Below are positions 11,514 through 50,689 of a stretch of 64,000 nt of DNA, piece after piece. Where the stretch lies: positions 384,001 through 448,000 of the forward strand of contig JBBCGK010000001.1 in assembly GCA_037200965.1 (NCBI GenBank), written 5' to 3'. A model generated the notes under the pieces. That model was not told where the DNA came from. It worked only from the letters and a program-made list of their open reading frames with translations, and made no database searches. Every line of letters starts with the position of its first letter. Position 1 is the first letter of the stretch. A program made the translations under genes and the position numbers. The stretch is from a bacterium. GTDB taxonomy: Bacteria > Patescibacteriota > Minisyncoccia > Phycocordibacterales > Phycocordibacteraceae.

Positions 11514-12797
11514 TTATTCCGGATACTGATTCCCGGCTCCTCCGTTATAGAGTTCGGCTATTTCGCCTGCGGTGAGAGCCCGGGACCAGACGCCGCACTC
11601 GTCCTGCAATTGGTCCCCGGAGATATTGCCTCCGGCCTGGTACCCGAGCCCGAACGCCGTGGAGCTGTCGTTCTTCGTTTCCGCTACGGTTCCGGTGCCG
11701 ATGCCCGCGCCGTTCACATAGATCGTTCCCGTCGTTCCGCTCGCGGTGGCGGCGATGTAATACCAGGCGCCGTCCGAAAGCGTCTGGGGGATGGTAACTT
11801 GCTCGTTGCTTGAGCCGTTGGTGCCGAAAAACAATGCGCCTGTTCCCCCGGCATTTGCATATGCTAGACGGTACGAATTCGCATCAGACGGCCCGCCCCA
11901 CTTCGCGAGGATCGGATACATGTCCGGCGGCTGCGACCCGAATTTGACCCAGCACGCGAGCGTCATGTCTCCCGTCACGTCGAGCCCGTTCTGGGTTAAG
12001 TCGTCGGCGGTGAAATAATGCCCTGCCCTGCCCGCGCCCGTAATCCGGGCGGCATTATGAACGAGGCCTGGCGCGTACACGGTGCCGTTGTTTGCCAACG
12101 TATTGCCGCCGACCGAATCGATGGCATCGCCGCCCGTCTCGTCGAGTTTCCAGTAGGAAACGAGCGAGCCGTCCGAATACGCGGCAGGCACCGGAGCGGG
12201 CGGAGTATCATCGGGAGGAGTATCAGGCTCGTCGTTGCCGCCCCCATCGCCTTCATCATCGTCGTTCTCGTCATCGTTCCCTCCCGAACTGCCTCCGCCG
12301 GAACTATGATGAGAAGAATGGTGGGTAATAATGCGGCCGGAGGTTGACGCAGGTTTCGGAGCTCCGTATCCGAGCGCATAGGAACCTAAGTAACGGGCGC
12401 CGTCATACAGAAACGTAAACACATCGGCACTCCCCGCGGCAGCGCTTAAGGTCGGCGCTTCGCCCCCGAGCCACAGGATCGAACCGGGCCATGCGACGGT
12501 ACGGTTTCCGGACGCATCCTGGTTGAGGATAAGCTTGTATTCGCTTCCCGGCTGCGCGCCTCCGAACGCCAGGCCGATATCGCTCGTGATGAGGTTGAGC
12601 AAATGCACGTTCCCCGTATTCCAGTCGATCGTAAGCGACGAGGGAATCACGTCGGTAACTATCTTTTGCTGGGAGGGCGAAGTGGTTCCGGCGGCGAATA
12701 AGGAAAGAGCGTACGGCGGCTCCGCCGCGAGCGCTGCCGAGGGCAGAGCGAATAAAAATGCCGCTACCAGGAGCGGAACGAACGACGTATGTCTCAT
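11514..12797 (-). CDS. secreted LamG/concanavalin-A-like lectin domain protein with an acidic low-complexity linker
   Basis: 427 aa with a signal peptide (MRHTSFVPLLVAAFLFALPSAALAA) and a mid-protein HHSSHHSSGGGSSGGNDDENDDDEGDGGGNDEPDTPP linker. The C-terminal motif DGAWYYIAATASGTTGTIYVNGAG is typical of Laminin_G_3. Confidence 0.55.
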   Translation of the reverse strand: MRHTSFVPLLVAAFLFALPSAALAAEPPYALSLFAAGTTSPSQQKIVTDVIPSSLTIDWNTGNVHLLNLITSDIGLAFGGAQPGSEYKLILNQDASGNRTVAWPGSILWLGGEAPTLSAAAGSADVFTFLYDGARYLGSYALGYGAPKPASTSGRIITHHSSHHSSGGGSSGGNDDENDDDEGDGGGNDEPDTPPDDTPPAPVPAAYSDGSLVSYWKLDETGGDAIDSVGGNTLANNGTVYAPGLVHNAARITGAGRAGHYFTADDLTQNGLDVTGDMTLACWVKFGSQPPDMYPILAKWGGPSDANSYRLAYANAGGTGALFFGTNGSSNEQVTIPQTLSDGAWYYIAATASGTTGTIYVNGAGIGTGTVAETKNDSSTAFGLGYQAGGNISGDQLQDECGVWSRALTAGEIAELYNGGAGNQYPE

Positions 12798-12897: not shown

Positions 12898-13800
12898 TTA
12901 GATAAAATATTGCTGAACGGATGCGCGGATGGAGTCGCGCATCGTAACAAACTCGGGATATTGGTAGAAGAAAAGTATCTTCTGGTCTTTTTTGAGCGTA
13001 CCGGCAGGCTTCGCCCGAAGCACGAAGTCGGTGAACGATTCGGCGATGTCTTCCTCGGGACCGCTCGCGCCGTACTTGGTGGTGAAATCGTCGAGGTGCC
13101 GGTTGTAAAACGCGGGCGTCTTCCCTTTCTCCCGCGCCTCGCGCGCGTCCGCCACGTCGCCGGCGCTCCAGAAAGCTTTCACGAACGCGTCGAGATACGA
13201 ATCCTTTTTGGTGCACCCGGCAAGAGAGAGATACCGCCCTGTTTTGGCGCAATAGCGCGGACTCTTTTTCTTGAATTCGACCTGATCCTTATCGAGCGTG
13301 AGGAGATGCGTGTATTCGTGCGTCAGGATGATGGCGGCGTCGCGCACCCATGTCCGGTTCTCGAAGCTGGACGCGTTCGTGTTCACGGCGAGCATCCACG
13401 ACGGCTGCTTGTTGCTTATGCGCGTCACGAACGCGAGCACGGGCTCGTGCGGGAGATTGTAGGTAAGGTAGACGCCGATATGCTGGTAGGTGAAGTCGGT
13501 CCCCGCGATGCCCTCGAATATGTCCCAGACTTTCTGCTCGTTGGTGTCCGTGTTCCTCGTCCACTTGTAGTTCTTATACAGCCGCTGGTTCGCGACCCTG
13601 AACACGTTCACGATGTCCTCTTCGTCATACGGCACTTCCCTGCTCACCTCATTCCCGATGGGAACGTCGAGAGAGGAACGGTCGAACGACCATTCGGTAT
13701 TGGCTGTCGGGACGGCCTGGACTGGCGGGGCCGCCTGGGCGGGCAGCGCCATAAGGAGCGCGAACGGCAGAAGGAGGGCGCTATAGAAAGCCTTTCTCAT
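12898..13800 (-). CDS. secreted putative zinc metallopeptidase (HExxH: HEYTH)
   Basis: About 300 aa with a signal peptide (MRKAFYSALLLPFALLMALPAQA) and an HEYTHLLT motif. The start is chosen at ATG 13800, 7 nt downstream of a TATAGT; the track start at 13809 is a GTG. Confidence 0.5.
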   Translation of the reverse strand: MRKAFYSALLLPFALLMALPAQAAPPVQAVPTANTEWSFDRSSLDVPIGNEVSREVPYDEEDIVNVFRVANQRLYKNYKWTRNTDTNEQKVWDIFEGIAGTDFTYQHIGVYLTYNLPHEPVLAFVTRISNKQPSWMLAVNTNASSFENRTWVRDAAIILTHEYTHLLTLDKDQVEFKKKSPRYCAKTGRYLSLAGCTKKDSYLDAFVKAFWSAGDVADAREAREKGKTPAFYNRHLDDFTTKYGASGPEEDIAESFTDFVLRAKPAGTLKKDQKILFFYQYPEFVTMRDSIRASVQQYFI

Positions 13801-13893
13801 GCCGAACACTATATACCGGGCTGTGGGCGAAATGAAGGCGCGTCTTGCGGAAACGTTAAAGCGTAAAGGAATACGATCGACTGCTAGAAGCCA

Positions 13894-13920: not shown

Positions 13921-14335
13921 GTATTGGATCGGTAAGCTATTTCAGTGAACTTTTACATCTGGAAAGTATTGAGTATTTGGTAGCAGAAAACCGCCTTTCA
14001 GCGGTTTTCTGGGAAGGTGTGGCCGTAATGCGCTGTTTGGTCTTGCCTTAACTCAGTCATTCCTCTGACCTCAAGCTCTCATCGTAGGACAGCTTTTTCC
14101 AAGTCCCCTATTTCTTCTTACGCTTTGTGTCGCCAAGGGCGGCACCTGCGACTGACTTCTGGACTGTACGCTTTTGCGGCTTCTTCAGCAACTTCGATGC
14201 CATACTTGCCACACGTTTGCTCGTGTTTCCCATGATAGTGCTTGCCGAGGAGGATTAGTAGAAGTGACCACCTTCTATCCTCGGTCTCTACATTTTACTC
14301 TTGTAAGAATTTACAGCGAGGTGGATAACTGATTC

Positions 14336-14869
14336 CTACAGGAATGCGATGAAACCCAGTAAACCAAGTCCTACCGCGAGAAGGATGAAGGTTGGAACCA
14401 CACTGAAATTAATATAGCGTCTCTCAGATTTCCTTAGCTCGTCAACAGACTCAAACTGCTGTAGTTTCGGATTCAGAATATTTTTCCTTGAATATACATA
14501 CCTGCCCCGATTCCATGATAGACGTCTCCCATGTCTAAATGTAAAGATGATTGCAAAGAGCGATGCAAGAAACATTGCCAGAGTTAAAAGACCGAAAAAC
14601 AGAGTCCATATACCTTCAAAACCATCTGTATTGATTAGCTTATCCGTCACTTCAAAATAAAGGTAGGTTATGACATATACAATGAGTATGTCAGGCAGCT
14701 TCCTTAGTGAGATATATGCTATGTATCCGTACCCAAAGGGAGAGATGGTCCATCCTTTAATATATTTCAGATCATTATCTGAAAGCTGATTCTCATTTCT
14801 TACCTGCTTTCTTTCAAACCATGTAAAGCTTGACAGGTATTCGCGAGTCTCCTTAAATCCAAATTTCAT
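14336..14869 (-). CDS. hypothetical membrane protein in the AT-rich island (orphan immunity-protein candidate)
   Basis: 177 aa, 3-4 TM helices, low-GC codon usage unlike the host; lies between the two 27-bp repeats. Confidence 0.45.
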   Translation of the reverse strand: MKFGFKETREYLSSFTWFERKQVRNENQLSDNDLKYIKGWTISPFGYGYIAYISLRKLPDILIVYVITYLYFEVTDKLINTDGFEGIWTLFFGLLTLAMFLASLFAIIFTFRHGRRLSWNRGRYVYSRKNILNPKLQQFESVDELRKSERRYINFSVVPTFILLAVGLGLLGFIAFL

Positions 14870-14973
14870 AACCTGCTTAAATTCACTTCACTATAATAAA
14901 TCCTTGTCAGGATTAATTCCGCTAAGATTAATTTCCTCTAGGTCAATCTGAAAAGCTCTTGCTTGCTGTTGCA

Positions 14974-15309
14974 TTAGAGAAATAATCTCATATACAGCCA
15001 TCTGGTAGCCTCTGTCATAGTCTGTAGTCTCCGTATTGATTTTCTTATTGGAATTTCGCCAAGTTTGTATTCAATAATGTCGCCAGTACCTGGAAGTGCA
15101 AATTCCTCAAGTAAGAATCGAGGAATATAGTGATGATTCGATTGTTCGTAATCATTGATATAAACTCCTTTTTGTAGGATTCCATATATATAAAATACTA
15201 CTTTAGATAAAAGACGACTTCTTATCCTCCTATTTAGCATTACCATGATTAGCTTATTTGCTAATCTAAGTCTCGCGATGTTTATACGCTTTACTAGCAC
15301 CGATATCAT
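14974..15309 (-). CDS. hypothetical protein in the AT-rich island (possibly a truncated orphan module)
   Basis: 111 aa, AT-rich, no recognisable motif; the start is uncertain. Confidence 0.3.
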   Translation of the reverse strand: MISVLVKRINIARLRLANKLIMVMLNRRIRSRLLSKVVFYIYGILQKGVYINDYEQSNHHYIPRFLLEEFALPGTGDIIEYKLGEIPIRKSIRRLQTMTEATRWLYMRLFL

Positions 15310-15332
15310 TAAGTAGGGACTGTTAGGTCTTT

Positions 15333-15359
15333 CTAGACACTAAGTGCTGTATACAAGCC
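15333..15359. repeat. 27-bp direct repeat, copy B (stop codon plus 24 nt at the 3' end of the 15333-15542 gene)
   Basis: See copy A. A local tandem duplication tacaagcca/tacaagcc sits next to it. Confidence 0.6.
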
Positions 15360-15542
15360 ATACAAGCCAATAACTATAAAGAATAGAGCGGATAATCTGA
15401 TCATTACCAGCATCCACTTTGGTTCTTGATTATTTTTTATAGAATAGACACTGCGTGTAAAATTCCAAATTACACCAGGATTTACAATCGATAGGAGACC
15501 GGCGATAAGAAAAATAGAATTTAATATTATTTGAGAAGTCAT
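15333..15542 (-). CDS. small 2-TM membrane protein, putative cognate immunity protein of the RHS C-terminal toxin
   Basis: 69 aa with two hydrophobic helices. It starts 4 nt after the RHS stop codon, and the region is AT-rich like the toxin tip. Confidence 0.55.
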   Translation of the reverse strand: MTSQIILNSIFLIAGLLSIVNPGVIWNFTRSVYSIKNNQEPKWMLVMIRLSALFFIVIGLYGLYTALSV

Positions 15543-15546
15543 ATAG

Positions 15547-18500
15547 TTATCTGTTATTTTTAACCTTATTTTTTGTCTCGGTCGTTGTTGGCTTCGTTGT
15601 AGCTGGTGTTGTCGGAGCAGGCGCGGTTTGAATCATACTTCCAGGAATGATTGGGACATGGACTGTATAGGTTTGCGATACTGCTGCTCCAACGCCAATT
15701 TGCAGGTTATGACTGCTTGAAACATCTTGTTTTGGACCTGTAGCATTAGTTCCATCCTTTACGTTAACAGTTGCTGATTTCGAGTATTTATACCCCACCC
15801 CTACTGCGCCGCCCACACTTTGTTCAACCTGCACCTCAGCGTTTTTTGGCATAGAACCTGATGAGAACCCTCCACCTATCTTTGCTTCCGCTCCAAGCGA
15901 AGGTCCTCCGCCGGCAACTGCGTTAACTCCTTGGTCACTTGCTTCAAAACCTATCTGCACATTGAAGAATCCATATGTTAGACCTCCATTGATATAAACA
16001 TACCAATTACCAGACGGATCCTTATTAATTATTGGATTATTTCGGACATAACTATAGCTATTCAAAGTTTGAGGATCCATCAGAATCTGATTCAATTCTT
16101 GCTGTGTTAGTTCCTTTACCTTCTTTGCATCTCCCATAGCCAAGAAAGATGGGTCTTGTGATAGAAACTGTCCACGTCCCCCGTCGTAATAACGTGCATT
16201 TAGATACGACAAATCAGACTCGTCATCATGGAACTGCCCGATGAAAGTCCGCCCGAGATCGACGGCTCCCGCATCGACCCTCTCGCTCCCGTACGGATAG
16301 TAGTCGAGGGTCTTCGCAAGCTGGCCCGCATCGTCCGAGACGACGTTCGTCGAGCCCAGGTGGTCGGGATGCATATAGCTCGTGGTGGTGGCGGAGCCGT
16401 TTCCTTCGATCGCGGCGACAAGCCCGTCTCCCGCCCAGATATACGCCGTAGTGGTCGCGCCTTGTAGTTCGAAGTATTTATTCGGGTACAGAGTGGCGAT
16501 GCCGCCAGAAACCTTCGCGGCCCTGTTGCCGACATGGTCATAGGCATAGGTGGTGGTCGCGGACCCATCACTTGAAGCGGCGAGGCGGTTGCGGTAATCC
16601 CAGGCGAACGAATCGGGACCGTGGGCGACGACGTTCCCGTCGTTGTCGTAGGAGAGGGTCGTGGACGCGACGGAGGTCGGCGCATGGGGATTCGCGTAGC
16701 CGGTCCCGGCATAGGCATAGGAGCCCTGGCCGGACTTGCCCGTAAGGTTGCCGATGGCGCTGTAGCCGTAGGTCTCGCGATACGGCAGAGATGCGGCGGC
16801 GGTCGTCGAGGCGACCGTCAGGCGGTCGAGATCGTCATAGGCGAACACCGCGCTTTTCGCCGCCTGCGTGTCGGAATAGTCATCGATGCCGGTAACATTC
16901 CCCACGGCGTCATAGGTGAAATAGATGTCCTGGATCGTCGTACCCGACGGCGGCGTTCCGATCACGTAGCTTGCGGCGGCGCTCCAGTCGCTGTCCACGT
17001 CGTGGTCGTCCCATACCCGCATCCGCCAGTAGTACGGGATGCCAGCCGCAAGCGCGTCCCCCGCATAGGTAATGTCCTCCGTGCGCGTGCCGGGGGCGGT
17101 GGAGCTCGCAAACGGCGCCTTCGCGCTGTCCCAAACCGGAGCGCTCCAAGCGCCCGTCGAGGTCGCCACCTGTATCTGGAAATACCGCGCGGAATCGCCG
17201 GAGTCCGGATCGGCATACACCGCGGAGAACTCGGGGAAATAATCCGTGATCCCGGCCGGGTTCGTAAGCCCTTCGGTCAGGAGCGAGGCGGGCGCGCCCG
17301 GCGGAAAGGACACGGGAATCTCGAAGCTCGCCACGGAACTCCACTCGCTTTGCGTATCGGCATCCCAAAGCTTGATCCGCCAATAATACGGCGTGGACGA
17401 GGCGAGGGCCGGTCCCGCGTATGAGATGTCCGGTATGCGCATGCCGGACGGCGTCGAGCTTGCAAGGGCCGTCATGCCAGTGTCCCAATAGACGCTTGAG
17501 AACGCGCTTGAGGCGGCGAGCTGGATCCGGTATGCGAGGGCCAGATCGCCCGCGTCCGCGTCCGTAAAGAGGGCCGAAAACTCCGGCGTAAGGTCGGTGA
17601 CGTGCACGGGATCCGTCTGCCCTTCGGTAAGAAGGGCCGTCGGCCCGGCAGGAGCCGTGTCGTAGACAACGACGAGCTTCGGATCGTGGCCCGTACCCGT
17701 ATCGTCCGCCGAAGCGAAATTCGCGACGAGTTCGGTCGCGTCGGTGGGAGCGATATTGTTGAAGTCGTTATACGTCCGGACGGAAAGCTTCGTGACGCCG
17801 GTCCTCGAAATGGAAGCCAGCCCGTTCGCGTTAAGCGCGATCGGTTCGTACGTGTTGCCGGCATACGTTCCGTCGCTTACGCCATAGGACGTGCTGCCGA
17901 TCATGTCGAAGTCCTGGCTTACGAGGCTCGCAGCGGACGAAGGCGAAGAAGAAGCGACATAGAGCCGTTTCTCGGAGCCGCCCGCCGTGACGCCGGTCAT
18001 GTAAAGGCTGAGGGTCGCGTCGATGACCGGAACGCTGTCGGGAAGCGAGGACGTGTCGAAAAGAAGGAACCCGCGCCTGATGCCGTAGTCAAGCGCCCCG
18101 GAAGCGACCCCGAGCTCGTCGCTCACGATGATCTCAGCAGCGTCGGAATTGGCGTTGATACCGTTCGTCGCGTTATGAACCGAGTTCCAGTTCGAGCTGT
18201 GATCCTTATACACGTATCCGTCGACCGACGACGTCTCGGGGTCAGGGTCGGGATAGAACGTACCTGTGTCCGCGCGCGCTCTTTTGGGGAACAGGAAGCC
18301 GACGATCGCTTCAAGGATGCCGGGGCTCCCGCCCTGCGCCCGTTTCTGGGCTTCATAGGAGTCCGCGGTGGTGATGCCGTAATCGGCGACCCACCACCCG
18401 CCTTTTTCGTCTTCGTAATACTGGGGATCGCCGGAAACGATTTCGGCGACGAACGTGTTCGGCTTGTCGGTCGCGAAAACGCGCGCGTGCTTGGTTCGCT

Positions 18501-21500
18501 GGCTTTTAATCTCTCCTTTCACCGCCACGCCCGCTGCCTTTGCCCGCGCCCGGGTCTCCTCGCTTGCCGGAAGATCGTCCACGTTCTCGTCCGTCCGGTA
18601 GGCATAGCGGACGATGCCGTCCGAAATTTCCCTGGTGCCAAGATGCCGGTCAACCGGCGCGCGCAACCGGAGCTCCGGCGCGTCGAATGGAAGCGCCTTC
18701 AGGGAAGCGTACGAGTCCCCGTCCGGTGCCGCTCTCTCATCCGTCGTGGTCGAGGCCGTTTCGCCAACTGCCGCTTCCGGAACGAGCGATTCCCCGAGAG
18801 GCTGCGTAGTCGAGGCCGCACGGGACTCCGTTTCCGGAACCTCCTCCGTCGTAGCGGCTCCTTCTTCCGGCGAGATCGCATCATGCCCGTCGAGATCGGA
18901 AGGAACGATCGGCTCGACGGACGCTTCTTCGCCAGCCTCTTCCTGGCCCATACCCAAAAACGCGAGCAGATACGGACTGTTCGACGCAAGCGCGAGACGG
19001 CCGTTTCGTATGCCAAGCAATTTCCCGAAAGCGCCCGCCTGCTCCGAGTCTTCGCCATCTCCATCCGTGCGGAGAGAATCTCCCGCCTGGGGAAGGACCG
19101 TGCGGATGTTCGTGAGCCGATAGAGCTGGTCCGCCGCGTAGGTGTAGGAACTCTCGGTTCCGTTCCCCAGCGCCGCATACTTGACCTTCCCGGTCGGCGC
19201 ATAATCGAAGTCGCTCACGACATCGGCAAAAGTCCCCGCTTCTCCCTGCCGCTGTGCGATCCTCTCGAGCTGCCCGGCGCTGTTGTATGTGTACCGGGCC
19301 TGTATCCCGTTCGGATATCCGAGCGTCGCAAGGTTCCCGAGCCGGTCGTACCCGTACCGCGTTATCGCGGATACGCCGCCGATAGTGTCGGTTTCCGTCT
19401 CCATCCGCCCGAGCGGATCGTATGCGAAAGCCGCCGTCGTTTCGGTCGTCGATGCCGTGCAGAGAAGTCCCTTTCCTTCCGTACAGGCGTCATAGGTATA
19501 GGCGACCTCGATACTTGGGCTCCCGGCGAAATCTTCGGCGAGGGGCCGGTTGAGATCGTCATAGGTGAATACCGTCGTCTGCCCCTTCGGATCGGTCGAG
19601 GATGCCAGATTCCCGGAAGCATCGTAGTTGTATGACCAGATGCCGTAGGTCGCGTCCGCGCCCGCATGGAGGTCTGTCGCGCTCAGGCGGCGGCCGAGGC
19701 CGTCATAAGCAAAGTCGCGGATATTCCCCTGCGCGTCCGTTATCTTCGTCAGGTTCTTATTGCCGTCGTACTCATACGCGGTCGTCTGCGAGCTCCCGCC
19801 GACATGCTCGACAACTGACGCCAAATTCCCGTAAGCATCCTTGACGAGATCCTTCGCGCGCCCGAGCGCGTCGGTGACGGTCGTTTTCCAGTCGTCATAG
19901 GCGTATTCCGTCTCCCCGACGGCGTTCTCGACCGAACTCACGCGCTTCAGCGGATCGTACGCATAGCGCGTGCGAAGCGGGAGGGCGGGCGGCGAGCTGG
20001 TGCCGGTGAAACCGGTCCCGGAGGCGAAGTAGGGCTGGGATTCGCTTACGAGAAGCCCGCGTCCGTCGTACGCGAACGTGCGTACCGCGTACCGGTTCGA
20101 TCCTTCGGCTTCGGCAAGCTCTTCGACTTTCCTGCCGAAACCGTCGAAGTACGTATAGGAATCGGCCGAAACGGCGTCGTCGAGATAGTCGGTCCGCTTG
20201 GCGCGGCGCGGCATCCCGGTATCGGTATAGGCATACGCGCTTTTCATAACCAGCGCCGAAGGCTCCTCCGTGTCCGGCTGCCACTCTTCGAGCACCCGGT
20301 CGAGCGGATCATACACGGTATGGTACGTCCGGCCGTTCGGATTCGTCGTCTGCCGCGGCTTGCCCGAGGAATAGTCGTAGAGATACGCGGTGCTCTGCCC
20401 GAGCGCATTGGTAGTCGTCGCCGGATACAAGCCATAGGGATCGTACTCGTAGATCGTCTGCTTATCGCGCGGATCCTTTTCGGTGAGTACGAGCCCGCGG
20501 GCGTCGTAGGTTTTTTCGGTATCGATCGTCGTCGAAGCCGCGATCCATGACTCCTGCTTGGTCAGGTTCCCCCTGTTCAGTGAACCGAAAGAAAGCGCGT
20601 CATAGTAGTTTTTCGTCTCCCGCACCGTCGAGCTTGCCTGATCCGTACGCGTCTCTCGCGACAGAAGCGAGAAGGGCGCGGTGGAGCTTGCCGCGTAGGC
20701 ATACGCGGTCGTGAACTTGTCCGTGCCGGTATCGGCAAACGAGCCGTCCGCGCCCGCATTCACCCTTCCCCATTCGACCTTCTGCGTCAGGTTTCCGGCC
20801 CCGTCGTCATACGCGTACGTCTCGGCCTTGTCCGCATGGTCGGAATCCCCGTCGTAGTCGAGCACCGTCATTTGGGTCTTCCTGACGAAGTCCGCCTTCC
20901 CGCCCCGGTTATAAGTTTCCCATTTGTCCACTTCAAGCGAATACAGATGCCCCGCGTCGTCGTACGACTCGCTGCGGTACGCCTTCCCGATCTTCGACTG
21001 GTCGTCGAGATATTCCCCGGTCGAGGTCGCCGAGGCGTCGCCCTGATGGAAGAAGGTTTTCGTAACGTTCCCGGCGGCATCCGTCTTCGTGGTCGTCCCG
21101 AATCCGGCGATGCGCCGGTCGAAGGGGCTGCCAAAATAATACCTGCCGCCCGCATACGCGTAGGAATCGGTCGAAGTCGCCCCGATACCGGCATACCTGC
21201 TTATGCCCTCCGCAGTCTCGAGGTTCACCGGAAGCCCGGGATTGAGCATGGCACCGCCCGCGCCCCGATAGCTTGCGGAAGACTTGTACGACGCGGTAAT
21301 GGCCCCGCCCGCGGGCTCGACGACGCGCGTGAGCAGATCGGCCATGCCTCCGGTGCCGAGATAGACGAAGTTGTAGTTGTGATAATAGCTGCCGCCGATG
21401 GTACCCGAGGTGATGAAATCCACGGGGCCGTTCCCGTCCGCTTCCCCGATGCGCGTTCCGGCATCGAGACCGTTCGCAATGAACGGCGCGGGAAGCGTTC

Positions 21501-23451
21501 GGGCCGGATCGAGCGCCCATCCGGTACCCGTATTGAGGTAGACGGCGTTGCCCGACCATAAGGAATTCGCGCCGTTGAATTCGACCCATGAGTTATAGCC
21601 GATATCGACGAGGCCGTCGTTGTTGAAGTCGGCGAGACGGGTGCTCGTGCCGCCGCCGGGCGGGATTGGCACGGCCCACTCGGTGCTCGTGGCCCACCCC
21701 GACCCGGTGTTGAGATACACCATATCGGTCGGGCCGTACTGGGAATCGGAACCTCCGATAACGTCGTCGAGCCCGTCGTTGTTCACGTCGGCTATGCGCG
21801 CGCCGGTATCCGCCCGGAGCCGCGCGGAGAAAAGCACCGGTATCTGCCACGACGGCGCGTACGTCCAGCCGTGGCCGTTGTTGAGGTACACCTTCTTCGT
21901 ATACGTTACGCTCCCGCCGTTCGGATTGTTCACATACGAGCGGACGATATCGGCGGGGCCGTCGCCGTTCACGTCACTGAACCGGGTGCCGACGTCCTTA
22001 TTATTCTCCACAATCGTCTCCGGATTGGTCCATACGGTACTCGTCGCCCAGCCGCTGCCGGTATTGAGAAACACCGACGAATTACACACGAAATCCGGTA
22101 GCAGATCTCCGTTCACGTCCACTATGCGGGTCCCTTTGTCGCGTATCGATGAACTTCCGTATTCGGTGATGATGCAGGGAGCGTTCCAGAGCGTGTTTTC
22201 AGCCCATCCGGTACCGGTGCCAAGATAGGTATGCTTGGTTATCACGGGGCTGCTGTACTTGGATTCGACAAGGTCGGTGAGCGAATCGCCGTTCACATCG
22301 GCGAGCGTCACTCCGCGATCGCCCTGATCGTTCGTGAATTCGACCGGCACCGTCCAGCCGGGACTGGCCCACGCGGGACTCGATGTCGCATAGGAGAATG
22401 CGGCCGCGGGAAGCGAGATTACCGCCCCGCCGTCGTCCCGGCCCGATTCGGTAACGCCCGCGAGGAGGAGGCGCGAGCCGTTGTCGCCGTGCGTATAGGC
22501 GAAATCGTAGCTCCGAACCCACTCCCCGTTCACCTTCGTCCGTATCTGGTCGATCTTATACCGTGTCCGCACACCAAAGCCGCCGGGAGACGTCGTCGCG
22601 GTCGCGGTCGCCCGAAGGCTCTTCGCGAACTCGACCGAAAAGACTCCGGGCGCTCCGCCGCTCCCGGTATAGCGGATGGATTCGGGATAGATCTGCCCCG
22701 AATCTTTCGCGTAGCCGTACGTGACGGTATTTCCGTTCGCATCCATGGTTTCCTGGAGCATCCACTTGTACACTCTGCCCGAATCTCCCGGGTCATCCTG
22801 CCTGGCGGCGGTCGAGGTGCCGAACCTGTACACGACGCCGTTTTTATCCGTCACCATCCAGATGTTTCCGGCAAGCGCATAGCGCAGATAAGAACCGTCA
22901 TCGCTGCGGGCGAGAAAGACCGAGGAATCCGACGTGGTCGCAAGCTCTCCCGAAAGCGAGGAATAGAAATGCGGCGAGGTCGTGCTATAGAGATTTTGCA
23001 TCCCTTCGACGTTATACCGTTCTATGTACGGTATGGAGATATTCCAGCCGTATCCGAAAGCGCTCGCCTCGTCGCGGTCCTGACTCGAATAGGACAGGGA
23101 AAGATGCGGCTCCATACCGTTTCTTCCGGGCGGAACGGTGATCGCGTAGTCGTACGTAAAAGCACCTGTTGCGGCCGATTGATCGGCGCGGGTACGTTCC
23201 GGGCCGGAATCCCGCAGGTATGGCGGCAACTGATCATCGCCGTCCCCCAAACTGAGAGTCTGCGCTCCCCCGCCCTGAAGAAAGGCATCGCCCTCCGTAT
23301 CCGGCATAGCCGATGAAACATCCTCGGCCGGATCTTCCGACGCCGCCAAAACGGGAGCGCAGAAGAGCGGCGTGAAAGAAAGAATCAGCGATGCTGCCAC
23401 GAACTTGTTGAAGGATATTACCCAGGTCGCCCGTTTCGAGGGCTTTGCCAT
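15547..23451 (-). CDS. giant secreted RHS/YD-repeat polymorphic toxin: SpvB-like N-terminal domain, FG-GAP beta-propeller repeats, YD/RHS shell, RHS core, variable C-terminal toxin domain
   Basis: From N- to C-terminus the protein shows: a signal peptide (MAKPSKRATWVISFNKFVAASLILSFTPLFCAPVLAA); an SpvB/TcB motif (TGAFTYDYAITVPPGRNGMEPHLSLSYSS...GYGWNISIPY); at least 6 FG-GAP-like repeats (DVNGDxxxDxV); dozens of YD repeats (YEYDPYG, YAYDGRGLL, YNYDASGNL...); an RHS core end (ARYYDGGRGQFLSQDP...NSYSYVRNNPIINKDPSGNWY); and a ~150-aa Gly-rich tail. The start is chosen at ATG 23451, giving a good signal peptide; the ORF-track start at 23556 adds 35 aa. Confidence 0.85.
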   Translation of the reverse strand: MAKPSKRATWVISFNKFVAASLILSFTPLFCAPVLAASEDPAEDVSSAMPDTEGDAFLQGGGAQTLSLGDGDDQLPPYLRDSGPERTRADQSAATGAFTYDYAITVPPGRNGMEPHLSLSYSSQDRDEASAFGYGWNISIPYIERYNVEGMQNLYSTTSPHFYSSLSGELATTSDSSVFLARSDDGSYLRYALAGNIWMVTDKNGVVYRFGTSTAARQDDPGDSGRVYKWMLQETMDANGNTVTYGYAKDSGQIYPESIRYTGSGGAPGVFSVEFAKSLRATATATTSPGGFGVRTRYKIDQIRTKVNGEWVRSYDFAYTHGDNGSRLLLAGVTESGRDDGGAVISLPAAAFSYATSSPAWASPGWTVPVEFTNDQGDRGVTLADVNGDSLTDLVESKYSSPVITKHTYLGTGTGWAENTLWNAPCIITEYGSSSIRDKGTRIVDVNGDLLPDFVCNSSVFLNTGSGWATSTVWTNPETIVENNKDVGTRFSDVNGDGPADIVRSYVNNPNGGSVTYTKKVYLNNGHGWTYAPSWQIPVLFSARLRADTGARIADVNNDGLDDVIGGSDSQYGPTDMVYLNTGSGWATSTEWAVPIPPGGGTSTRLADFNNDGLVDIGYNSWVEFNGANSLWSGNAVYLNTGTGWALDPARTLPAPFIANGLDAGTRIGEADGNGPVDFITSGTIGGSYYHNYNFVYLGTGGMADLLTRVVEPAGGAITASYKSSASYRGAGGAMLNPGLPVNLETAEGISRYAGIGATSTDSYAYAGGRYYFGSPFDRRIAGFGTTTKTDAAGNVTKTFFHQGDASATSTGEYLDDQSKIGKAYRSESYDDAGHLYSLEVDKWETYNRGGKADFVRKTQMTVLDYDGDSDHADKAETYAYDDGAGNLTQKVEWGRVNAGADGSFADTGTDKFTTAYAYAASSTAPFSLLSRETRTDQASSTVRETKNYYDALSFGSLNRGNLTKQESWIAASTTIDTEKTYDARGLVLTEKDPRDKQTIYEYDPYGLYPATTTNALGQSTAYLYDYSSGKPRQTTNPNGRTYHTVYDPLDRVLEEWQPDTEEPSALVMKSAYAYTDTGMPRRAKRTDYLDDAVSADSYTYFDGFGRKVEELAEAEGSNRYAVRTFAYDGRGLLVSESQPYFASGTGFTGTSSPPALPLRTRYAYDPLKRVSSVENAVGETEYAYDDWKTTVTDALGRAKDLVKDAYGNLASVVEHVGGSSQTTAYEYDGNKNLTKITDAQGNIRDFAYDGLGRRLSATDLHAGADATYGIWSYNYDASGNLASSTDPKGQTTVFTYDDLNRPLAEDFAGSPSIEVAYTYDACTEGKGLLCTASTTETTAAFAYDPLGRMETETDTIGGVSAITRYGYDRLGNLATLGYPNGIQARYTYNSAGQLERIAQRQGEAGTFADVVSDFDYAPTGKVKYAALGNGTESSYTYAADQLYRLTNIRTVLPQAGDSLRTDGDGEDSEQAGAFGKLLGIRNGRLALASNSPYLLAFLGMGQEEAGEEASVEPIVPSDLDGHDAISPEEGAATTEEVPETESRAASTTQPLGESLVPEAAVGETASTTTDERAAPDGDSYASLKALPFDAPELRLRAPVDRHLGTREISDGIVRYAYRTDENVDDLPASEETRARAKAAGVAVKGEIKSQRTKHARVFATDKPNTFVAEIVSGDPQYYEDEKGGWWVADYGITTADSYEAQKRAQGGSPGILEAIVGFLFPKRARADTGTFYPDPDPETSSVDGYVYKDHSSNWNSVHNATNGINANSDAAEIIVSDELGVASGALDYGIRRGFLLFDTSSLPDSVPVIDATLSLYMTGVTAGGSEKRLYVASSSPSSAASLVSQDFDMIGSTSYGVSDGTYAGNTYEPIALNANGLASISRTGVTKLSVRTYNDFNNIAPTDATELVANFASADDTGTGHDPKLVVVYDTAPAGPTALLTEGQTDPVHVTDLTPEFSALFTDADAGDLALAYRIQLAASSAFSSVYWDTGMTALASSTPSGMRIPDISYAGPALASSTPYYWRIKLWDADTQSEWSSVASFEIPVSFPPGAPASLLTEGLTNPAGITDYFPEFSAVYADPDSGDSARYFQIQVATSTGAWSAPVWDSAKAPFASSTAPGTRTEDITYAGDALAAGIPYYWRMRVWDDHDVDSDWSAAASYVIGTPPSGTTIQDIYFTYDAVGNVTGIDDYSDTQAAKSAVFAYDDLDRLTVASTTAAASLPYRETYGYSAIGNLTGKSGQGSYAYAGTGYANPHAPTSVASTTLSYDNDGNVVAHGPDSFAWDYRNRLAASSDGSATTTYAYDHVGNRAAKVSGGIATLYPNKYFELQGATTTAYIWAGDGLVAAIEGNGSATTTSYMHPDHLGSTNVVSDDAGQLAKTLDYYPYGSERVDAGAVDLGRTFIGQFHDDESDLSYLNARYYDGGRGQFLSQDPSFLAMGDAKKVKELTQQELNQILMDPQTLNSYSYVRNNPIINKDPSGNWYVYINGGLTYGFFNVQIGFEASDQGVNAVAGGGPSLGAEAKIGGGFSSGSMPKNAEVQVEQSVGGAVGVGYKYSKSATVNVKDGTNATGPKQDVSSSHNLQIGVGAAVSQTYTVHVPIIPGSMIQTAPAPTTPATTKPTTTETKNKVKNNR

Positions 23452-23542
23452 TACGGGTATCGTAGCATCCATTATCGAGGGCTTGTGGATATCGGGAGAA
23501 TCGGAAACTTTCGTTTTTATTGACGATACGCAGCGCAACATA

Positions 23543-23557
23543 TATGATATTATCATA
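23543..23557. promoter_or_regulatory. 15-bp perfect palindrome TATGATA-T-TATCATA, putative operator of the RHH antitoxin operon
   Basis: Seen directly; lies 20-34 nt upstream of the antitoxin ATG and overlaps -10-like TACTAT/TATAAG hexamers. Confidence 0.45.
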
Positions 23558-26289: not shown

Positions 26290-27237
26290 TCGCACTGCAT
26301 ATCGAACACTCCCTAATACTAAGGAGGATATGCGCAAAGAACCCAGGGAAATCATCAGGAAATTGAAGAAGTCGGGAGGAAAGGTGCGCGAAACCGCACG
26401 GACACTCGGCATATCTCCGGGCACGGTGGTGTTCTGGAAGAAGCGAGCCCGGAGCATCCGGAGCCGGTTTGCGCTCTCGACGCGGCAGCTTGTCCGCAAG
26501 TCGACAAGACCGAAGCGTCTTCGCCGCAGGACGCTCTCGGGAGAGCGGGCTGAGGCGCTCTTGCGCCTGCGCGAAGAGAAAGGATACGGGGCGCGCAAGC
26601 TCAAAGTGCTGCTCGGCCTCTCCGAGCACCCGGCGACCATCCATCGCTTCCTCAAAGCGAAAGGTCATATACTGGAAGGCGCGTCATACCGACGGCCGAG
26701 ATATCAGGAGACCACGCATATGTATCTCAAGAACGTGACCGCGCCCGGGAAGCTTCAGATGGATGTGAAGTACGTGACGCCCGAGCTGTCGGGGCTCCCG
26801 CATACCCTGTATCTGTATGCCGTCATTGATATTTGGAGCCGATACAAAGCTGGCGTCATCTTCCCCGAGCTCGTGCAGGACTTCTCCATCGAGGCCCTGC
26901 GGACGGTTTCGCTGCCGTTCGTACCGGATTTCGTGCAGACCGACAACGGCCTTGAGTTCCAGAGCCGCTTCCGCGCCTTCGTGACTGGGGAACTCGGCTG
27001 GAAGCATCATTTCATCCACAAGGCGAACCCGAATGAGAACGCGGTCATCGAGCGGTCATTCCGCACCGACGAGGAGGAGTTCTTCTGGCGCTTCATGAAA
27101 AAGCCCGCTTCAATGGAGGACCTCAATGCCCAGTATCAGGCCTTTCTGCGCGAATACAACCACGAACGGCCGCACCTTGGCATCGAGCTCAAGACGCCGT
27201 ATGCTCGACTGCAAGAGTGTTCGATATGTTAGTGCGA
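26290..27237 (+). mobile_element. IS481-family-like insertion sequence (~948 bp) with 22/23-bp imperfect terminal inverted repeats and a probable 6-bp TTAAGG target-site duplication
   Basis: IRL is TCGCACTGCATATCGAACACTC (26290-26311) and IRR is GAGTGTTCGATATGTTAGTGCGA (27215-27237). Their reverse complements differ only by G vs AA. Flanking TTAAGG lies at 26284-26289 and 27240-27245. Confidence 0.7.
26330..27232 (+). CDS. DDE transposase (N-terminal HTH + rve integrase core), IS481-like
   Basis: 300 aa. The DDE triad context reads LYLYAVIDIWSR ... VQTDNGLEF ... AVIERSFRTDEEE. A canonical SD (AAGGAGG) lies 3-9 nt upstream of the ATG, unlike most host genes. Confidence 0.8.
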   Translation: MRKEPREIIRKLKKSGGKVRETARTLGISPGTVVFWKKRARSIRSRFALSTRQLVRKSTRPKRLRRRTLSGERAEALLRLREEKGYGARKLKVLLGLSEHPATIHRFLKAKGHILEGASYRRPRYQETTHMYLKNVTAPGKLQMDVKYVTPELSGLPHTLYLYAVIDIWSRYKAGVIFPELVQDFSIEALRTVSLPFVPDFVQTDNGLEFQSRFRAFVTGELGWKHHFIHKANPNENAVIERSFRTDEEEFFWRFMKKPASMEDLNAQYQAFLREYNHERPHLGIELKTPYARLQECSIC

Positions 27238-37553: not shown

Positions 37554-39518
37554 CTATGCCTCGCCCTTGAGTATTTTCTTCAGCGTCTCTTCAGGAACTT
37601 CGAAAGGCTGCACTCCTGGCGTTTTTTGCTGCGTTTGCGGTTCTTGCCGCGGTGCCGGAGCTTGGGGCACAACATCTGTCGCCGCGGAAGGCGCTACGGC
37701 TGGCTGCTTCGCGATAACGCTCGCGAGCGCGTCCTTGAGCGAACTTTGCTTCTCGGTCTCTTTCTGCTGTTTCTCCTTCCCGGCCGATGCGGTCATATTC
37801 TTGAGTATTGATTTAAGCTCCTCGGTGGTCTTTGCTTTCGGTACGGGCGGAACGCGTTCCCGGATCGGCGCGTTTATGGGCCGGTTTTGCTCTACGGAAG
37901 CGGGCTCGCCCATGGGAAGCTCTTCCCGGTGCGGGCGCGGCGGAAGCGCCTCTTCCTTTGGTCGTGGAGGGAGCGTACGCTCCGGAGAAAGGACAGGAGC
38001 GCGCATCAGGGTCCTTGCGGGAGAAGGCATGCGGGCCGGAACCGGGCGCTCGCTTGCCTCGCGCCGTGGCGCGGCAGGCACCGGGCGGGCCCCGGGCCCC
38101 GGCACTTCGCTTCCCTGGTTCGCAAGCGCCTTTTGCATGGCGACATTGCTTGGGGCTTTTCTCGGGGCCCCTGGCGGGCCGTACGAGGCCTTGCGCATGC
38201 GTGCGTCGACCGGCGCTTCGGAGGCGACGCTCGCCTCAAGCTCGGCGACTATGGCGCTTTCGATTCCTTCGCGCGGCGAGGTGAACTGCGCGCGGGAGGA
38301 GGCGATAACCTCGTTCCGGTACGAAACGGGCGGCGCTTCGATCGGCGGTATGGTTACGGCCGAAAACGGCGGCGAGCCGACGCCGTCGATCATGAGGGTC
38401 AGGTATATCTGCCGCTTGTCGAGACCGACGATGTCCTCCTTGAGGAAGGCGGGCGAAAAGACCGTTTCGAGTGTCTCGGCGTCGAAGGGACCGACGCGGA
38501 ACGCGACCGTCGTGCCCACGTTCCCGAATACGGCGTCCCGGACCTCTTCTTCCATCTGTTCGATGTACTGGTGCGCGATGACGAGGTTAAGTTTGTATTT
38601 TCGGGCTTCGGAAAGAATCTCGGCAAACGTCTCGTTCGCGAAGTTCTGGAATTCGTCGACATAGAAATAGAAGTGCGGGAGCCGGGCGAGGTCGGCGCCG
38701 TGGAGATTCGCGCGGCTCATGGCGCCGAGAAAGATGCGCGTCGTTAGCATGGAGCCCAGGAGCCGCATGTTGGTCTCGCCGACAAGCCCCTTCGAGAGGT
38801 TGATGATGAGTATCTTCCGGTTGTCCATCATCTCCCTGATGTCGAACGAGGACTTCGGCTGCCCGATAATGTTTCGAATGAGCGGGTTCCCGGTAAACTG
38901 GCCGATCTTGTTCTGGATCGCGGGCGTCGCCTCTTGCGTGTACTTGTCACCGTAGTTTGCGAATTCCTTGACCCAGAAATCCTTCACGACCGGATCTTTC
39001 ACGTTATCGACGACTTTGGTGCGATAAGCCCTGTCGGTGTACATGCGGTTCACCCCGAGAAGCGTCGCGTCCGGGTATTCAAGGAGCGCGAGGAGCGTGT
39101 TCGTGAGGATGTACTCCATGCGGGCGCTCCAGGCGTCCTCCCAAATCTTCTTGAAGGTCGCCATGAGACCCGAGACCACGAGGTGTCGCTTGTCGTACCC
39201 GACGTCTTCCATCACGTTGAAAGCGATCGGATTGTCCATGTCAAACGGCGCGAAGTAGACCACGTCCTTGATGCGCTCCTGCGGGACGTACTCCAGGAGC
39301 TTGTTGGCAGTCTCGCCGTGCGGGTCGATAAAGGTGAGACCTTCGCCGTTCCGAAGGTCCTGGATCGCCATGTTCTCAAGCAAGGTCGACTTGCCCATAC
39401 CCGTCTTCCCGATCACGTACATATGGCGGTCGCGGTCCTTCTGCTTGATGCCAAATGGCACTTTCTTCCCTCTCGAGTCGGTCGCCGCGAAATAGGTAAC
39501 GCGTTCCGGATTATCCAT
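37554..39518 (-). CDS. TraG/TraD/VirD4-family coupling-protein-like P-loop ATPase (soluble, no N-terminal TM helices) with a ~250-aa Pro/Ala-rich disordered C-terminal tail
   Basis: Walker A YVIGKTGMGKSTLL and Walker B FYFYVDEFQNFA (a DEF-type motif as in T4CPs). The C-terminus is PRPKEEALPPRPHREELP-rich. The start is chosen at ATG 39518, 6 nt after a perfect TATAAT; the track start at 39545 is a TTG. Confidence 0.5.
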   Translation of the reverse strand: MDNPERVTYFAATDSRGKKVPFGIKQKDRDRHMYVIGKTGMGKSTLLENMAIQDLRNGEGLTFIDPHGETANKLLEYVPQERIKDVVYFAPFDMDNPIAFNVMEDVGYDKRHLVVSGLMATFKKIWEDAWSARMEYILTNTLLALLEYPDATLLGVNRMYTDRAYRTKVVDNVKDPVVKDFWVKEFANYGDKYTQEATPAIQNKIGQFTGNPLIRNIIGQPKSSFDIREMMDNRKILIINLSKGLVGETNMRLLGSMLTTRIFLGAMSRANLHGADLARLPHFYFYVDEFQNFANETFAEILSEARKYKLNLVIAHQYIEQMEEEVRDAVFGNVGTTVAFRVGPFDAETLETVFSPAFLKEDIVGLDKRQIYLTLMIDGVGSPPFSAVTIPPIEAPPVSYRNEVIASSRAQFTSPREGIESAIVAELEASVASEAPVDARMRKASYGPPGAPRKAPSNVAMQKALANQGSEVPGPGARPVPAAPRREASERPVPARMPSPARTLMRAPVLSPERTLPPRPKEEALPPRPHREELPMGEPASVEQNRPINAPIRERVPPVPKAKTTEELKSILKNMTASAGKEKQQKETEKQSSLKDALASVIAKQPAVAPSAATDVVPQAPAPRQEPQTQQKTPGVQPFEVPEETLKKILKGEA

Positions 39519-39588
39519 GCGCCTATTATACACTTTCCAACGCAACGGCCGCGCCTAAAGACGCGGTCGTTGCTTATTTTCGTTTTTT

Positions 39589-48182: not shown

Positions 48183-48237
48183 AGGTCTAGTATACCTTCT
48201 GTGCGGGCCCCGGGGGCGTTCTCCACAGGGAATTTTG

Positions 48238-48310
48238 TGCACGCTCTAGGATTCGAACCTAGGACCGCTCGAGTATCAGTCGAGTGCTCTACCAACTGAG
48301 CTAAGCGTGC
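48238..48310 (-). tRNA. tRNA-Ile (anticodon GAT)
   Basis: The reverse complement folds as a cloverleaf: acceptor GCACGCT/AGCGTGC, D-arm GCTCAGTTGGTAGAGC, anticodon stem CTCGA/TCGAG with loop CTGATAC, and T-arm CTAGGTTCGAATCCTAG. Discriminator A; CCA not encoded. Confidence 0.85.
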
Positions 48311-49824: not shown

Positions 49825-50395
49825 GTACAAGACTCGAGAACGTATTCACCGTAGTATGGCTGACCTACGATTACTAGTGATTCCGGCTTCATGAGGTCGG
49901 TTGCAGACCTCAATCCGTACTGGGGGCGGTTTTCGGGATTAGCTCCACCTTGCGGTCTTGCATCCTTCTGTACCGCCCATTGTAACACGTGTGCAGCCCA
50001 GGGTATCAAGGGACATGCTGATCTGGCGTCATCCCCACCTTCCTCTCCCGTGAGGGAGCAGTCTCGCCTGACATATATAACAGGCAACGGGGGTTGCGTT
50101 CGTTACCCCACTGAAGGGAACAGTTCAAACCACGAACTGACGACGACCATGCATCACCTGTCCAGCACCCTCGAAGGCTCCGTCCCTTTCGGGTCGGATG
50201 CAGCTGGATTTCTAACCCTGGTAAGGTTCTTCGCTTGCCGACGAATTAAGCCACATGTTCCACCACTTGTGCGAGTCCCCGTCTATTCCTTTGAGTTTTA
50301 AGCTTGCGCTCGTACTACCCAGGCGGCTCGCTTATCGCGTTAGCTTAGCCCCACAGAGGGTCGATACTCCGTAGAGCGAGCGAGCAACGTTTAGG

Positions 50396-50427
<32 letters not shown>

Positions 50428-50689
50428 ATCCCCTGGCTTTCGTGTGTGAGCGTCAGGAACGTACCAGTCTATTGCCTTCGCCTTTGGTGTTCCCCATGAT
50501 ATCAACGGATTTCACCCCTACACCATGAGTTCCATAGACCTCTTACGCCCTCGAGCCGTACCGTTTCCCGTGCGGACCGGAAGTTGAGCTCCCGGATTTT
50601 ACGCGAGACTAATACGGCCGCCTTGACACCCTTTACGCCCAGTGATTCCGGATAATGCTCGGGGCCTCTGTATTACCGCTCCTGCTGGC

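Follow-up and report, generated by a model that had tools for sequence, protein, structure and literature searches.

The stretch of DNA analyzed here (64,000 nt of contig JBBCGK010000001.1, referred to as the window) carries on its minus strand one giant gene, which takes up 12.4% of the sequence. We are confident that this gene encodes an RHS polymorphic toxin accompanied by an immunity gene. The C-terminal tip of the toxin and the small open reading frame (ORF) behind it probably form an exchangeable cassette. As the best explanation of the whole we favor, with some reserve, a Sec-exported polymorphic toxin of Patescibacteria built as a single-chain cocoon similar to TcB/TcC. Two aspects set this version of a well-known kind of toxin apart: sugar-binding-like domains are inserted in the shell, and the tip belongs to a previously undescribed family. 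The gene and its main parts were delimited as follows (TM, transmembrane; aa, amino acids).

15547..23451, minus strand: giant RHS toxin gene, 2634 aa counted from Met36
15547..23556, minus strand: maximal extent of the ORF, 2669 codons, first ATG at 23556
23341..23451, minus strand: Sec-type signal peptide, aa 36-72, cleavage at about VLA/AS, read from the sequence
22372..23199, minus strand: SpvB/TcB-type N-terminal domain, aa ~120-395, Pfam SpvB
21337..22371, minus strand: six-bladed FG-GAP beta-propeller, aa ~396-740
19087..21336, minus strand: RHS/YD shell, part 1, aa 741-1490, RHS_repeat and YD_repeat matches
16009..16935, minus strand: RHS shell, part 2, and Rhs-associated core, aa 2208-2516, ending in NNPIINKDPSG; RHS_repeat match
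15550..16008, minus strand: C-terminal tip of 153 aa, Gly-rich and of low charge, a predicted beta-barrel of eight strands with a T/P-rich basic tail behind it
15333..15542, minus strand: 69-aa ORF with two TM helices, candidate immunity protein, starting 4 nt past the toxin stop codon

Residues are numbered throughout in the 2669-codon frame. The start at Met36 precedes a signal sequence (MAKPSKRATWVISFNKFVAASLILSFTPLFCAPVLA, followed by ASED) in which n-, h- and c-regions can be read, the first being basic and the second hydrophobic, and the relatives are alike in this respect. The public annotation chose the alternative start Met29 at 23472, giving a 2641-aa protein. An exact copy of this 2641-aa protein was found on the 960,259-bp contig of NCBI assembly GCA_037975565.1 and a second one in an independent Logan assembly of SRR28211700; a one-residue variant forms a separate database entry. 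A frameshift, named by an earlier, sequence-only reading as something that would undo its interpretation, was rejected, as was an assembly artefact, because the identical protein is present in two public assemblies. Promoter and terminator scans flanking the toxin gene performed no better than shuffled controls, and a hairpin near 13985-14010 did not qualify as a terminator.

Apart from plain FG-GAP and the sub-threshold models named as such below, all family models scored above their curated cut-offs. The SpvB domain was recognized with E = 7e-19 (68.5 bits, cut-off 22; 6.3e-21 in a second Pfam search), and this region matched PDB entry 6p0x weakly. Six FG-GAP calcium-loop motifs were located (aa 420, 480, 528, 590, 643, and 705); the FG-GAP_3 model was above its cut-off (1.1e-9, 39.2 bits versus 26.9; 2.8e-17 and 63.5 bits in the second Pfam search), whereas the plain FG-GAP model was not (16.9 bits versus 22.1). 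In the shell, Pfam RHS_repeat matched in six stretches (5.3e-35) and NCBIfam YD_repeat_2x (TIGR01643) with 1.4e-22, and the best PDB sequence matches were Rhs cocoons of type VI secretion systems (T6SS), i.e. Tse5, 7q97, 8h8a, and Tse15. The Rhs-associated core (TIGR03696 of NCBIfam, aa 2419-2516) scored 52.6 bits and thus exceeded its cut-off of 32.5. It ends at aa 2506-2516 with NNPIINKDPSG, a motif of the PxxxxDPxG type, after which the 153-aa tail follows. The Asp of D-x-x-G is invariant across the tip family and the relatives. Both candidate aspartates, in LSQDPSF and in NKDPSG, are present; by analogy with TccC3, they would be the catalytic pair. No second Rhs core was found in the window. 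Together, SpvB, the six-bladed FG-GAP propeller and the RHS repeats are the architecture expected of a closed shell, and the core terminates in a putative motif of the aspartyl-protease type, DPSG. The sequence-only reading had proposed a single giant ORF filling more than 12% of the window, with a Sec signal peptide, an SpvB/TcB-type N-terminus, at least six FG-GAP repeats, a YD/RHS shell and an Rhs core with NNPIINKDPSG and a tail of ~150 aa; all of these parts were recovered, with hidden Markov models except for the signal peptide. Three things escaped it: a 717-aa insert in the shell with two immunoglobulin (Ig) domains, a sharp drop in GC content across the tip region, and the two-TM ORF behind the gene.

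Relatives of the protein were sought in one genome per GTDB species. The window protein alone as query retrieved none; an alignment with P0040, a 42%-identical relative, retrieved 30 loci. Nearly all belong to Patescibacteria, whose genomes are tiny and which live on other cells. The labels include Parcubacteria, Saccharibacteria, Peribacteria, Peregrinibacteria, Gracilibacteria, Kaiserbacteria, Adlerbacteria, and Paceibacterota, with two outliers that were binned as Bryobacteraceae and Bacteroidales. Most stop-to-stop ORFs have a length of 1850-2800 aa, with shorter ones in truncated or fragmentary loci. SpvB, propeller, shell, and core are 32-50% identical across the family (the propeller was undetected in four relatives), and all 20 N-termini inspected carry Sec signal peptides. 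A description of this RHS family was not found in the open-access literature on Patescibacteria, the Candidate Phyla Radiation (CPR), or Saccharibacteria.

Alignments within the family end at about aa 2481-2507, just ahead of the tip, and the tips of the 30 loci are all different, none being that of the window. Some of them belong to known classes: (i) a CdiA-type RNase A in L013 (RNAse_A_bac, 4e-15); (ii) a barnase-type Ribonuclease in L019 (7e-10), followed by Barstar (1.5e-14); (iii) Peptidase_M15_4 in L035; and (iv) an HExxH metallopeptidase-like tip in L024. Complete tips are present in 18 loci, and in 14 of these another ORF starts 2-14 nt past the stop codon; TM proteins come after the hydrophobic tips (L010 and L027, but also L022 and L028). 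When flanking ORFs were clustered, the sole widely shared class of neighbors was downstream orphan Rhs-core fragments, found in 12 loci; apart from such orphan tips, the 3-kb flanks of ~36 loci contained no TcA-like or other conserved partner. At the sequence level, the family thus displays the full signature of polymorphic toxins. This interpretation had been put forward by the sequence-only reading together with a call to compare C-terminal tips among relatives, and it is borne out by the differing tips, which include known toxins with adjacent immunity genes, by the orphan cassettes in 12 loci, and by the low-GC tip cassette described below. Short Lys/Arg-rich C-terminal tails (…KNKVKNNR, …PKKK, …SSKK, …KKSDKKE) are very common on tips of the family (window 15550-15580, L004, L005, L018, L022, L025, L027, L028, and L030); they either serve a function or result from the AT-richness of 3′ ends.

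The window's own tip defines a family of about a dozen members. Seven matches came from scanning 1.84 billion representatives, and a profile search among 5.8 billion clusters likewise gave seven. A scan of metagenome contigs with a three-sequence tip alignment gave 223 pattern matches and no relative, and a tblastn search of plasmids with the tip and the 69-aa protein gave nothing relevant. The full-length giant P0040 (locus L008) carries a tip 47% identical to that of the window. In L004 and L005, the members are C-terminal fragments, namely orphan cassettes that follow a main Rhs gene equipped with a different tip, and L006 and L007 contain degraded copies. The alignment has 12 invariant positions. 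The conserved part of ~125 aa starts right after the putative cleavage motif and consists of 17% Gly, 54% G/A/S/T/V, and 11% charged residues. Seven tip sequences had no Pfam match at E <= 1, R_equi_Vir (Vap) included, and the tip had none among PDB sequences. Matches to biliverdin reductase (E 0.8), to Ysc84 (one member), and to the outer-membrane barrel MXAN_2562 (E 0.29) were set aside as noise of the sequence searches against PDB, Pfam, and NCBIfam.

AlphaFold2, run with a 12-sequence alignment of the tip, returned a barrel-like model with a pTM (predicted template modeling score) of 0.53. DSSP assigned four long strand segments, which we read as paired hairpins that would make up an eight-stranded barrel. 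A Foldseek search with this model gave nothing at E <= 0.001, and its sole high-probability match was VapD.

The 69-aa ORF behind the toxin gene is uncalled in the public annotation. Its product has two TM helices joined by a ~20-residue loop and matches Pfam DUF6199 (PF19701) with 30.1 bits (gathering threshold 27.7; profile positions 2-62 of 64), a family of which no mention was found in open-access literature. A homologous 66-aa ORF (tblastn 3e-7; DUF6199 1.3e-12) starts 10 nt past the stop codon of P0040 in L008, and the orphan tips of L005 and L004 are followed after 6 and 2 nt by two-TM ORFs of 77 and 88 aa, respectively. Overall, a two-TM ORF directly follows the tip in four intact loci and one degraded locus. 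Hidden Markov models of the tip and of the small protein co-occur in five of six distinct tip loci, and the small-protein model matched in none of the 30 family loci with other tips. Because the immunity candidate consists essentially of two membrane helices, and given the fold prediction, the simplest mechanism would be a tip that acts on membranes and is neutralized there, a possibility that we regard as evenly balanced.

The base composition changes sharply towards the 3′ end of the toxin gene. Above nt ~16200, GC content is 0.60-0.67 (~0.62 for the rest of the toxin gene); at that point it falls to 0.35-0.45, and values between there and ~14300 span 0.31-0.51. The break lies inside the core, at …LNARYYDGGRGQF. 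Two features are involved.

14300..16215, no strand: low-GC island with the core end, the tip, the 69-aa ORF, and the ORFs 14974-15309 and 14336-14869
15997..16203, minus strand: 207-nt low-GC handle, LNARYYDG…DPSGNWYV, GC 0.38, coinciding with the GC break

The handle is 86% identical at the nucleotide level to the start of the orphan cassette in L005, which comes from another metagenome, whereas both flanks are 30-40% identical. L005 also holds a 55-nt remnant of the handle block. The two loci are syntenic, as a 39%-identical HExxH gene lies directly downstream there too, and the tips of their main genes differ. We read this as probable tip replacement via recombination at the conserved handle, a process known for Rhs elements. 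The tip and the small two-TM ORF lie within a low-GC cassette that is opened by the handle and that occurs as an orphan elsewhere. Two further ORFs of the island, both on the minus strand, were considered as extra tips or immunity genes and rejected: neither recurs beside this tip in the fetched loci, and the window has no second Rhs core. The 111-aa ORF at 14974-15309 matches only the first 32 positions of DUF4238, has a single weak match elsewhere (in L012), and is likely a gene fragment; the 177-aa membrane ORF at 14336-14869 had no match in the fetched loci. In L008, the whole giant gene of P0040 (5315-14536) has a GC content of ~0.48 compared with ~0.60 in its flanks; whole genes may be horizontally mobile in addition to tips.

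The shell is split by the 717-aa insert between aa 1490 (…LYRLTNIRTVLPQAG) and aa 2208 (IQDIYFTYDAVGN…). Four segments were distinguished.

18721..19086, minus strand: acidic linker of low complexity with which the insert begins, aa 1491-1612, read from the sequence, no Pfam match
18271..18720, minus strand: conserved N-region of the insert, ~150 aa, aa 1613-1762, with the block RTKHARVFATDKPNT...GDPQYY
17644..18270, minus strand: DNRLRE/CBM96-like domain, ~210 aa, aa 1763-1971, sub-threshold match to NCBIfam NF033679
16936..17643, minus strand: two Rha78A-type N-terminal Ig domains, aa 1972-2207, Pfam Ig_Rha78A_N 1.8e-29 in two stretches

The N-region is common to free-standing secreted proteins of ~500 aa, and homologues of the insert module are mostly free-standing secreted proteins of this size. 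For the DNRLRE/CBM96-like domain, 38 homologues were found, and the free-standing P0002 scored 24.4 bits against NF033679. A profile of the insert had no match in the PDB. The insertion site was surveyed in 25 relatives having both of the 90-residue anchors that flank it: 17 of them have 0-11 residues at the site, two have 24 and 98, and six have 287-784. The following contents were found.

L009 and L010: module identical in kind to that of the window
L008 and L023: a different N-terminal part, followed by a DNRLRE-like domain and one Ig domain
L024: acidic linker and Laminin_G_3 (1.1e-16)
L028: Gly_rich_2 (4.4e-19)

LamG lies directly at the site in L005 and a DNRLRE-like module in L001; in L004, shell part 2 of the giant gene is preceded by LamG and by a stretch that is DNRLRE-like. 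Because the site is short in most relatives and filled with varied modules in others, it would appear to be a permissive loop that has repeatedly received modules of the carbohydrate-binding type. We infer that the insert is displayed outside the cocoon and serves target recognition, since a folded module of 717 aa cannot share the lumen with the cargo and since it is held by an acidic tether. Whether the insert is a targeting module is, in our estimate, about an even question.

Two observations on related genes concern such insertions. At 7032-15504 of L001 (an ENA metagenome), a gene of like architecture, DNRLRE-like and Ig insert included, is broken into at least eight called ORFs, and its DNRLRE-like module is duplicated at the N-terminus of the SpvB piece; L001 represents either a pseudogene or an error-prone assembly. 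P0040 has two further insertions: shell part 1 contains Gly_rich_2, and ~250 aa are inserted just upstream of the core.

In the mechanism we propose, the core would cleave itself from the tip at DPSG after export, and the 153-aa tip would stay enclosed in the shell. The insert would project outward on its acidic linker from a loop that counts 0-11 residues in most relatives. Its DNRLRE/CBM96-like and Ig domains would bind glycans on the surface of the target cell and so take over the targeting role held by TcA or by a secretion needle in other RHS systems. Upon contact, the tip would be released and act in or on the cytoplasmic membrane of the target. There, the glycine-rich, eight-stranded Vap-like barrel might dissipate ion gradients, an effect to be expected because the predicted barrel resembles the membrane-active Vap proteins. 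The 69-aa DUF6199 protein would work inside the membrane to protect the producing cell and its kin, and new tips would be gained through recombination at the handle. In its most far-reaching form, which we advance tentatively and consider possible rather than probable, this would amount to a Patescibacteria-wide, TcA-independent, Sec-exported single-chain BC cocoon with a targeting device of its own, provided by interchangeable lectin-type loop modules (DNRLRE-like plus Ig, LamG, Gly-rich), which in this genome would deliver a previously unrecognized Vap-like membrane permeabilizer neutralized by DUF6199; with it, an epibiont may kill competitors or make its host cell leaky.

Several points weigh against this interpretation. 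The match of the insert to NF033679 is sub-threshold (E 1.3e-5, 25.3 bits versus a cut-off of 34, profile positions 19-163 of 164), and the outward orientation of the insert is one that we infer. Structure prediction, a check suggested by the sequence-only reading, was informative for the tip, albeit with moderate confidence (pLDDT, the predicted local distance difference test, of 68; two of five models above 60). For shell and insert it was not: the sole model containing the insert (AlphaFold2 without alignment, aa 1470-2669) has a pLDDT of 32 and is unusable. The small proteins of L004 and L005 are ~25% identical to that of the window and do not match DUF6199; they may be positional analogues instead of homologues. 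Cleavage, glycan binding, tip activity, and localization are predictions. Finally, a Sec-exported cocoon would have to deliver its cargo in the absence of TcA, T6SS, and type VII secretion (T7SS).

Among the alternatives, one retains the polymorphic toxin and differs in what the tip does: it would hit an extracytoplasmic target such as lipid II, cell-wall precursors, or a membrane transporter, or else work as a ligand binder in the manner of avidin-like barrels, with the immunity protein placed where the toxin arrives. Soluble barrels of the avidin and lipocalin types were indeed also among the structural matches of the tip, which has no long hydrophobic segment, and the structure of VapB was described as avidin-like, suggesting a binding function (PMC4089522). 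However, an immunity candidate that is nearly all TM, with a loop of ~20 residues, offers little surface to neutralize a soluble enzyme, and the tip is very low in charge and high in Gly/Ala/Ser/Thr/Val. We consider this alternative rather unlikely.

The protein might also be mainly a surface adhesin or scaffold for host attachment, similar to teneurins; its tail would then be an anchor or a remnant without toxicity, and the small ORF would have nothing to do with it. CPR bacteria are known epibionts, the lectin-like insert and a neighboring LamG protein fit adhesion, and no catalytic domain is recognizable in the tip. We judge this very unlikely, because the 12 invariant positions indicate a tip family under selection, because the tip circulates as orphan cassettes along with the small TM ORF and lies inside a horizontally exchanged low-GC block, and because the core protease motif is intact and sister proteins carry bona fide toxins and immunity genes.

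It is most improbable that the protein serves as BC component in a genuine ABC (Tc) complex, one whose propeller docks on a TcA pentamer encoded elsewhere and whose tip is injected into eukaryotic cells: the layout of SpvB, FG-GAP propeller, RHS, and core is that of TcB-TcC, P0040 and P0013 carry TcdB_toxin_midN, and the propeller is kept in most relatives, suggesting a binding partner, but the window contains no other ORF >774 aa, orphan tips are the only conserved neighbors within 3 kb in ~36 loci, TcdB_toxin_midN is sub-threshold in the window protein, adjacent immunity genes such as Barstar point to bacterial targets, and all members checked have Sec signal peptides, of which we know no report for TcB or TcC subunits. 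A published survey, moreover, places TcC to 96.4% in Proteobacteria and to 3.2% in Firmicutes (PMC7861908).

The following neighboring features were identified in the window.

11514-12797, minus strand: secreted LamG protein of 427 aa, Laminin_G_3 2e-21
12898-13809, minus strand: secreted ORF of 303 aa, HEYTH at aa 164, no Pfam match
48237-48310: tRNA-Ile(GAT), downstream of 16S
49773-52084, minus strand: 16S rRNA gene, two Rfam matches, split by an insertion of ~730 nt
50731-51474, minus strand: LAGLIDADG_2 homing endonuclease ORF, 1.5e-32, inside the 16S insertion

The first two are the secreted LamG and HExxH neighbors that the sequence-only reading had pointed out. The LamG domain is ~30% identical to those inside the giant RHS genes of L004, L005, L024, L015, and L027; the same lectin modules are found as parts of separate proteins and as shell insertions. 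The HEYTH protein has a 39%-identical homologue at 7328-8215 of L005, directly after the orphan tip cassette; its gene is apparently a conserved downstream neighbor in at least two related loci. Interruption of the 16S gene by an insertion with a LAGLIDADG endonuclease is a typical trait of CPR/Patescibacteria. The rRNA genes appear unlinked because no 23S rRNA gene was found in the window. All close relatives of the toxin protein come from Patescibacteria metagenome-assembled genomes. A small, GC-rich genome, as had been supposed, is plausible given a GC content of ~0.59, the split 16S gene, the 960-kb contig, and these relatives. Upstream of the toxin gene, a 300-aa rve_3-type transposase ORF (26330-27232, plus strand) lies among genes for glycosyltransferases and polysaccharide synthesis (precomputed annotation, L002). 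A 663-aa ORF at 37554-39545 on the minus strand has domains of TrwB/VirD4-type coupling proteins of type IV secretion systems (TrwB_AAD_bind 3.9e-8, TraG-D_C, T4SS-DNA_transf).

RHS polymorphic toxins are familiar, and the gene as such is unsurprising. What goes beyond routine is the spread of the family across Patescibacteria, the lack of a known delivery machine, the hot spot for insertion of lectin-like modules, and the pairing of the tip with DUF6199. If confirmed, the family would be a lineage-wide CPR device for antagonism or host interaction, with many tiny genomes devoting 6-9 kb to one gene. Natural variants of the lectin-accepting shell loop would make target finding and entry by a Sec-exported RHS cocoon testable, and a role would be suggested for the uncharacterized DUF6199 along with a new all-beta toxin fold.

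Compared with known systems, the protein shares with teneurins, which are built from FN-plug, NHL propeller, YD shell, ABD, and Tox-GHH, the YD shell alone (weak precomputed matches to TEN_YD-shell). Its propeller is of the FG-GAP instead of the NHL type, and no Tox-GHH was found in it with Pfam; the teneurin-like label of the sequence-only reading stands for the shell only. The same reading had named a Tc-toxin BC fusion. Here, the architecture agrees: like TcB-TcC (Photorhabdus TcdB2-TccC3, Yersinia YenB-YenC), the protein combines SpvB, an FG-GAP propeller, an RHS shell, an aspartyl autoprotease core motif, and a variable C-terminal cargo. It differs in being one polypeptide with a Sec signal, a candidate immunity gene beside the cargo, and a 717-aa lectin-like insert, and its host is a Patescibacterium and not a proteobacterium or firmicute. 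TcB is defined via the TcdB_toxin_midN/midC domains, and proximity to tcA/tcB homologues separates TcC from other Rhs proteins (PMC7861908). In the window protein, TcdB_toxin_midN reached 20.6 bits (cut-off 24.8) and Pfam TcdB_toxin_midC was not detected; no TcA-like gene is present in the window. Two defining features of a Tc toxin, a TcA nearby and TcdB_toxin_midN above cut-off, were thus not found, and only the architecture is shared.

T6SS Rhs effectors (Tse5/RhsP1, RhsA, Tse15) resemble the window protein in their cocoon, the autoproteolytic-type core, the arrays of orphan tips, and recombination at the DNA of the core. In contrast to these, the window protein is without PAAR, VgrG, clade domain, and T6SS, and it has a Sec signal, SpvB, and a propeller. 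The tip of Tse5, a membrane-depolarizing toxin, is of a helical glycine-zipper type, whereas that of the window is predicted to be all-beta. The predicted all-beta fold also sets the tip apart from other polymorphic ionophore or depolarizing toxins, e.g. the ionophores of contact-dependent inhibition (CDI), whose logic is like that proposed here (PMC11630599). Vap proteins of Rhodococcus equi (VapA/B/D/G) are glycine-rich eight-stranded barrels (PMC4089522, PMC4118825), and VapA binds and permeabilizes liposomes and neutralizes phagosome pH (PMC10100859). The tip has no detectable sequence similarity to them. Rather than being cargo of Rhs proteins, they stand alone as secreted or surface proteins in an actinobacterial pathogen and lack an immunity partner.

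For a soil Saccharibacterium, one sentence of an earlier paper mentions, as a possible secreted toxin, a 2487-aa RHS/YD protein that has PA14 and galactose-binding domains and lies beside an immunity gene (Starr et al. 2018, PMC6031116); its family, its tip, the insertion site, and the cassette were not analyzed there. It is likewise a giant secreted CPR RHS toxin with accessory domains of the carbohydrate-binding type and a neighboring immunity gene, which in the window is a candidate; the accessory domains are PA14 and galactose-binding there and DNRLRE-like and Rha78A Ig in the window. WapA-type toxins of Bacillus subtilis share with the window protein the Sec signal, the RHS repeats, a polymorphic C-terminal toxin, an immunity gene (in the window a candidate) immediately downstream, and independence of a dedicated secretion needle. 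They were reportedly described by Koskiniemi and colleagues in 2013 as Sec-dependent RHS toxins of contact-dependent inhibition. WapA has cell-wall-binding repeats and is not known to have SpvB, a propeller, or an in-shell insert, and its known tips are nucleases and not of the barrel type. By analogy, the functional logic of the window protein would be that of a WapA-type, Sec-dependent RHS contact-dependent toxin.

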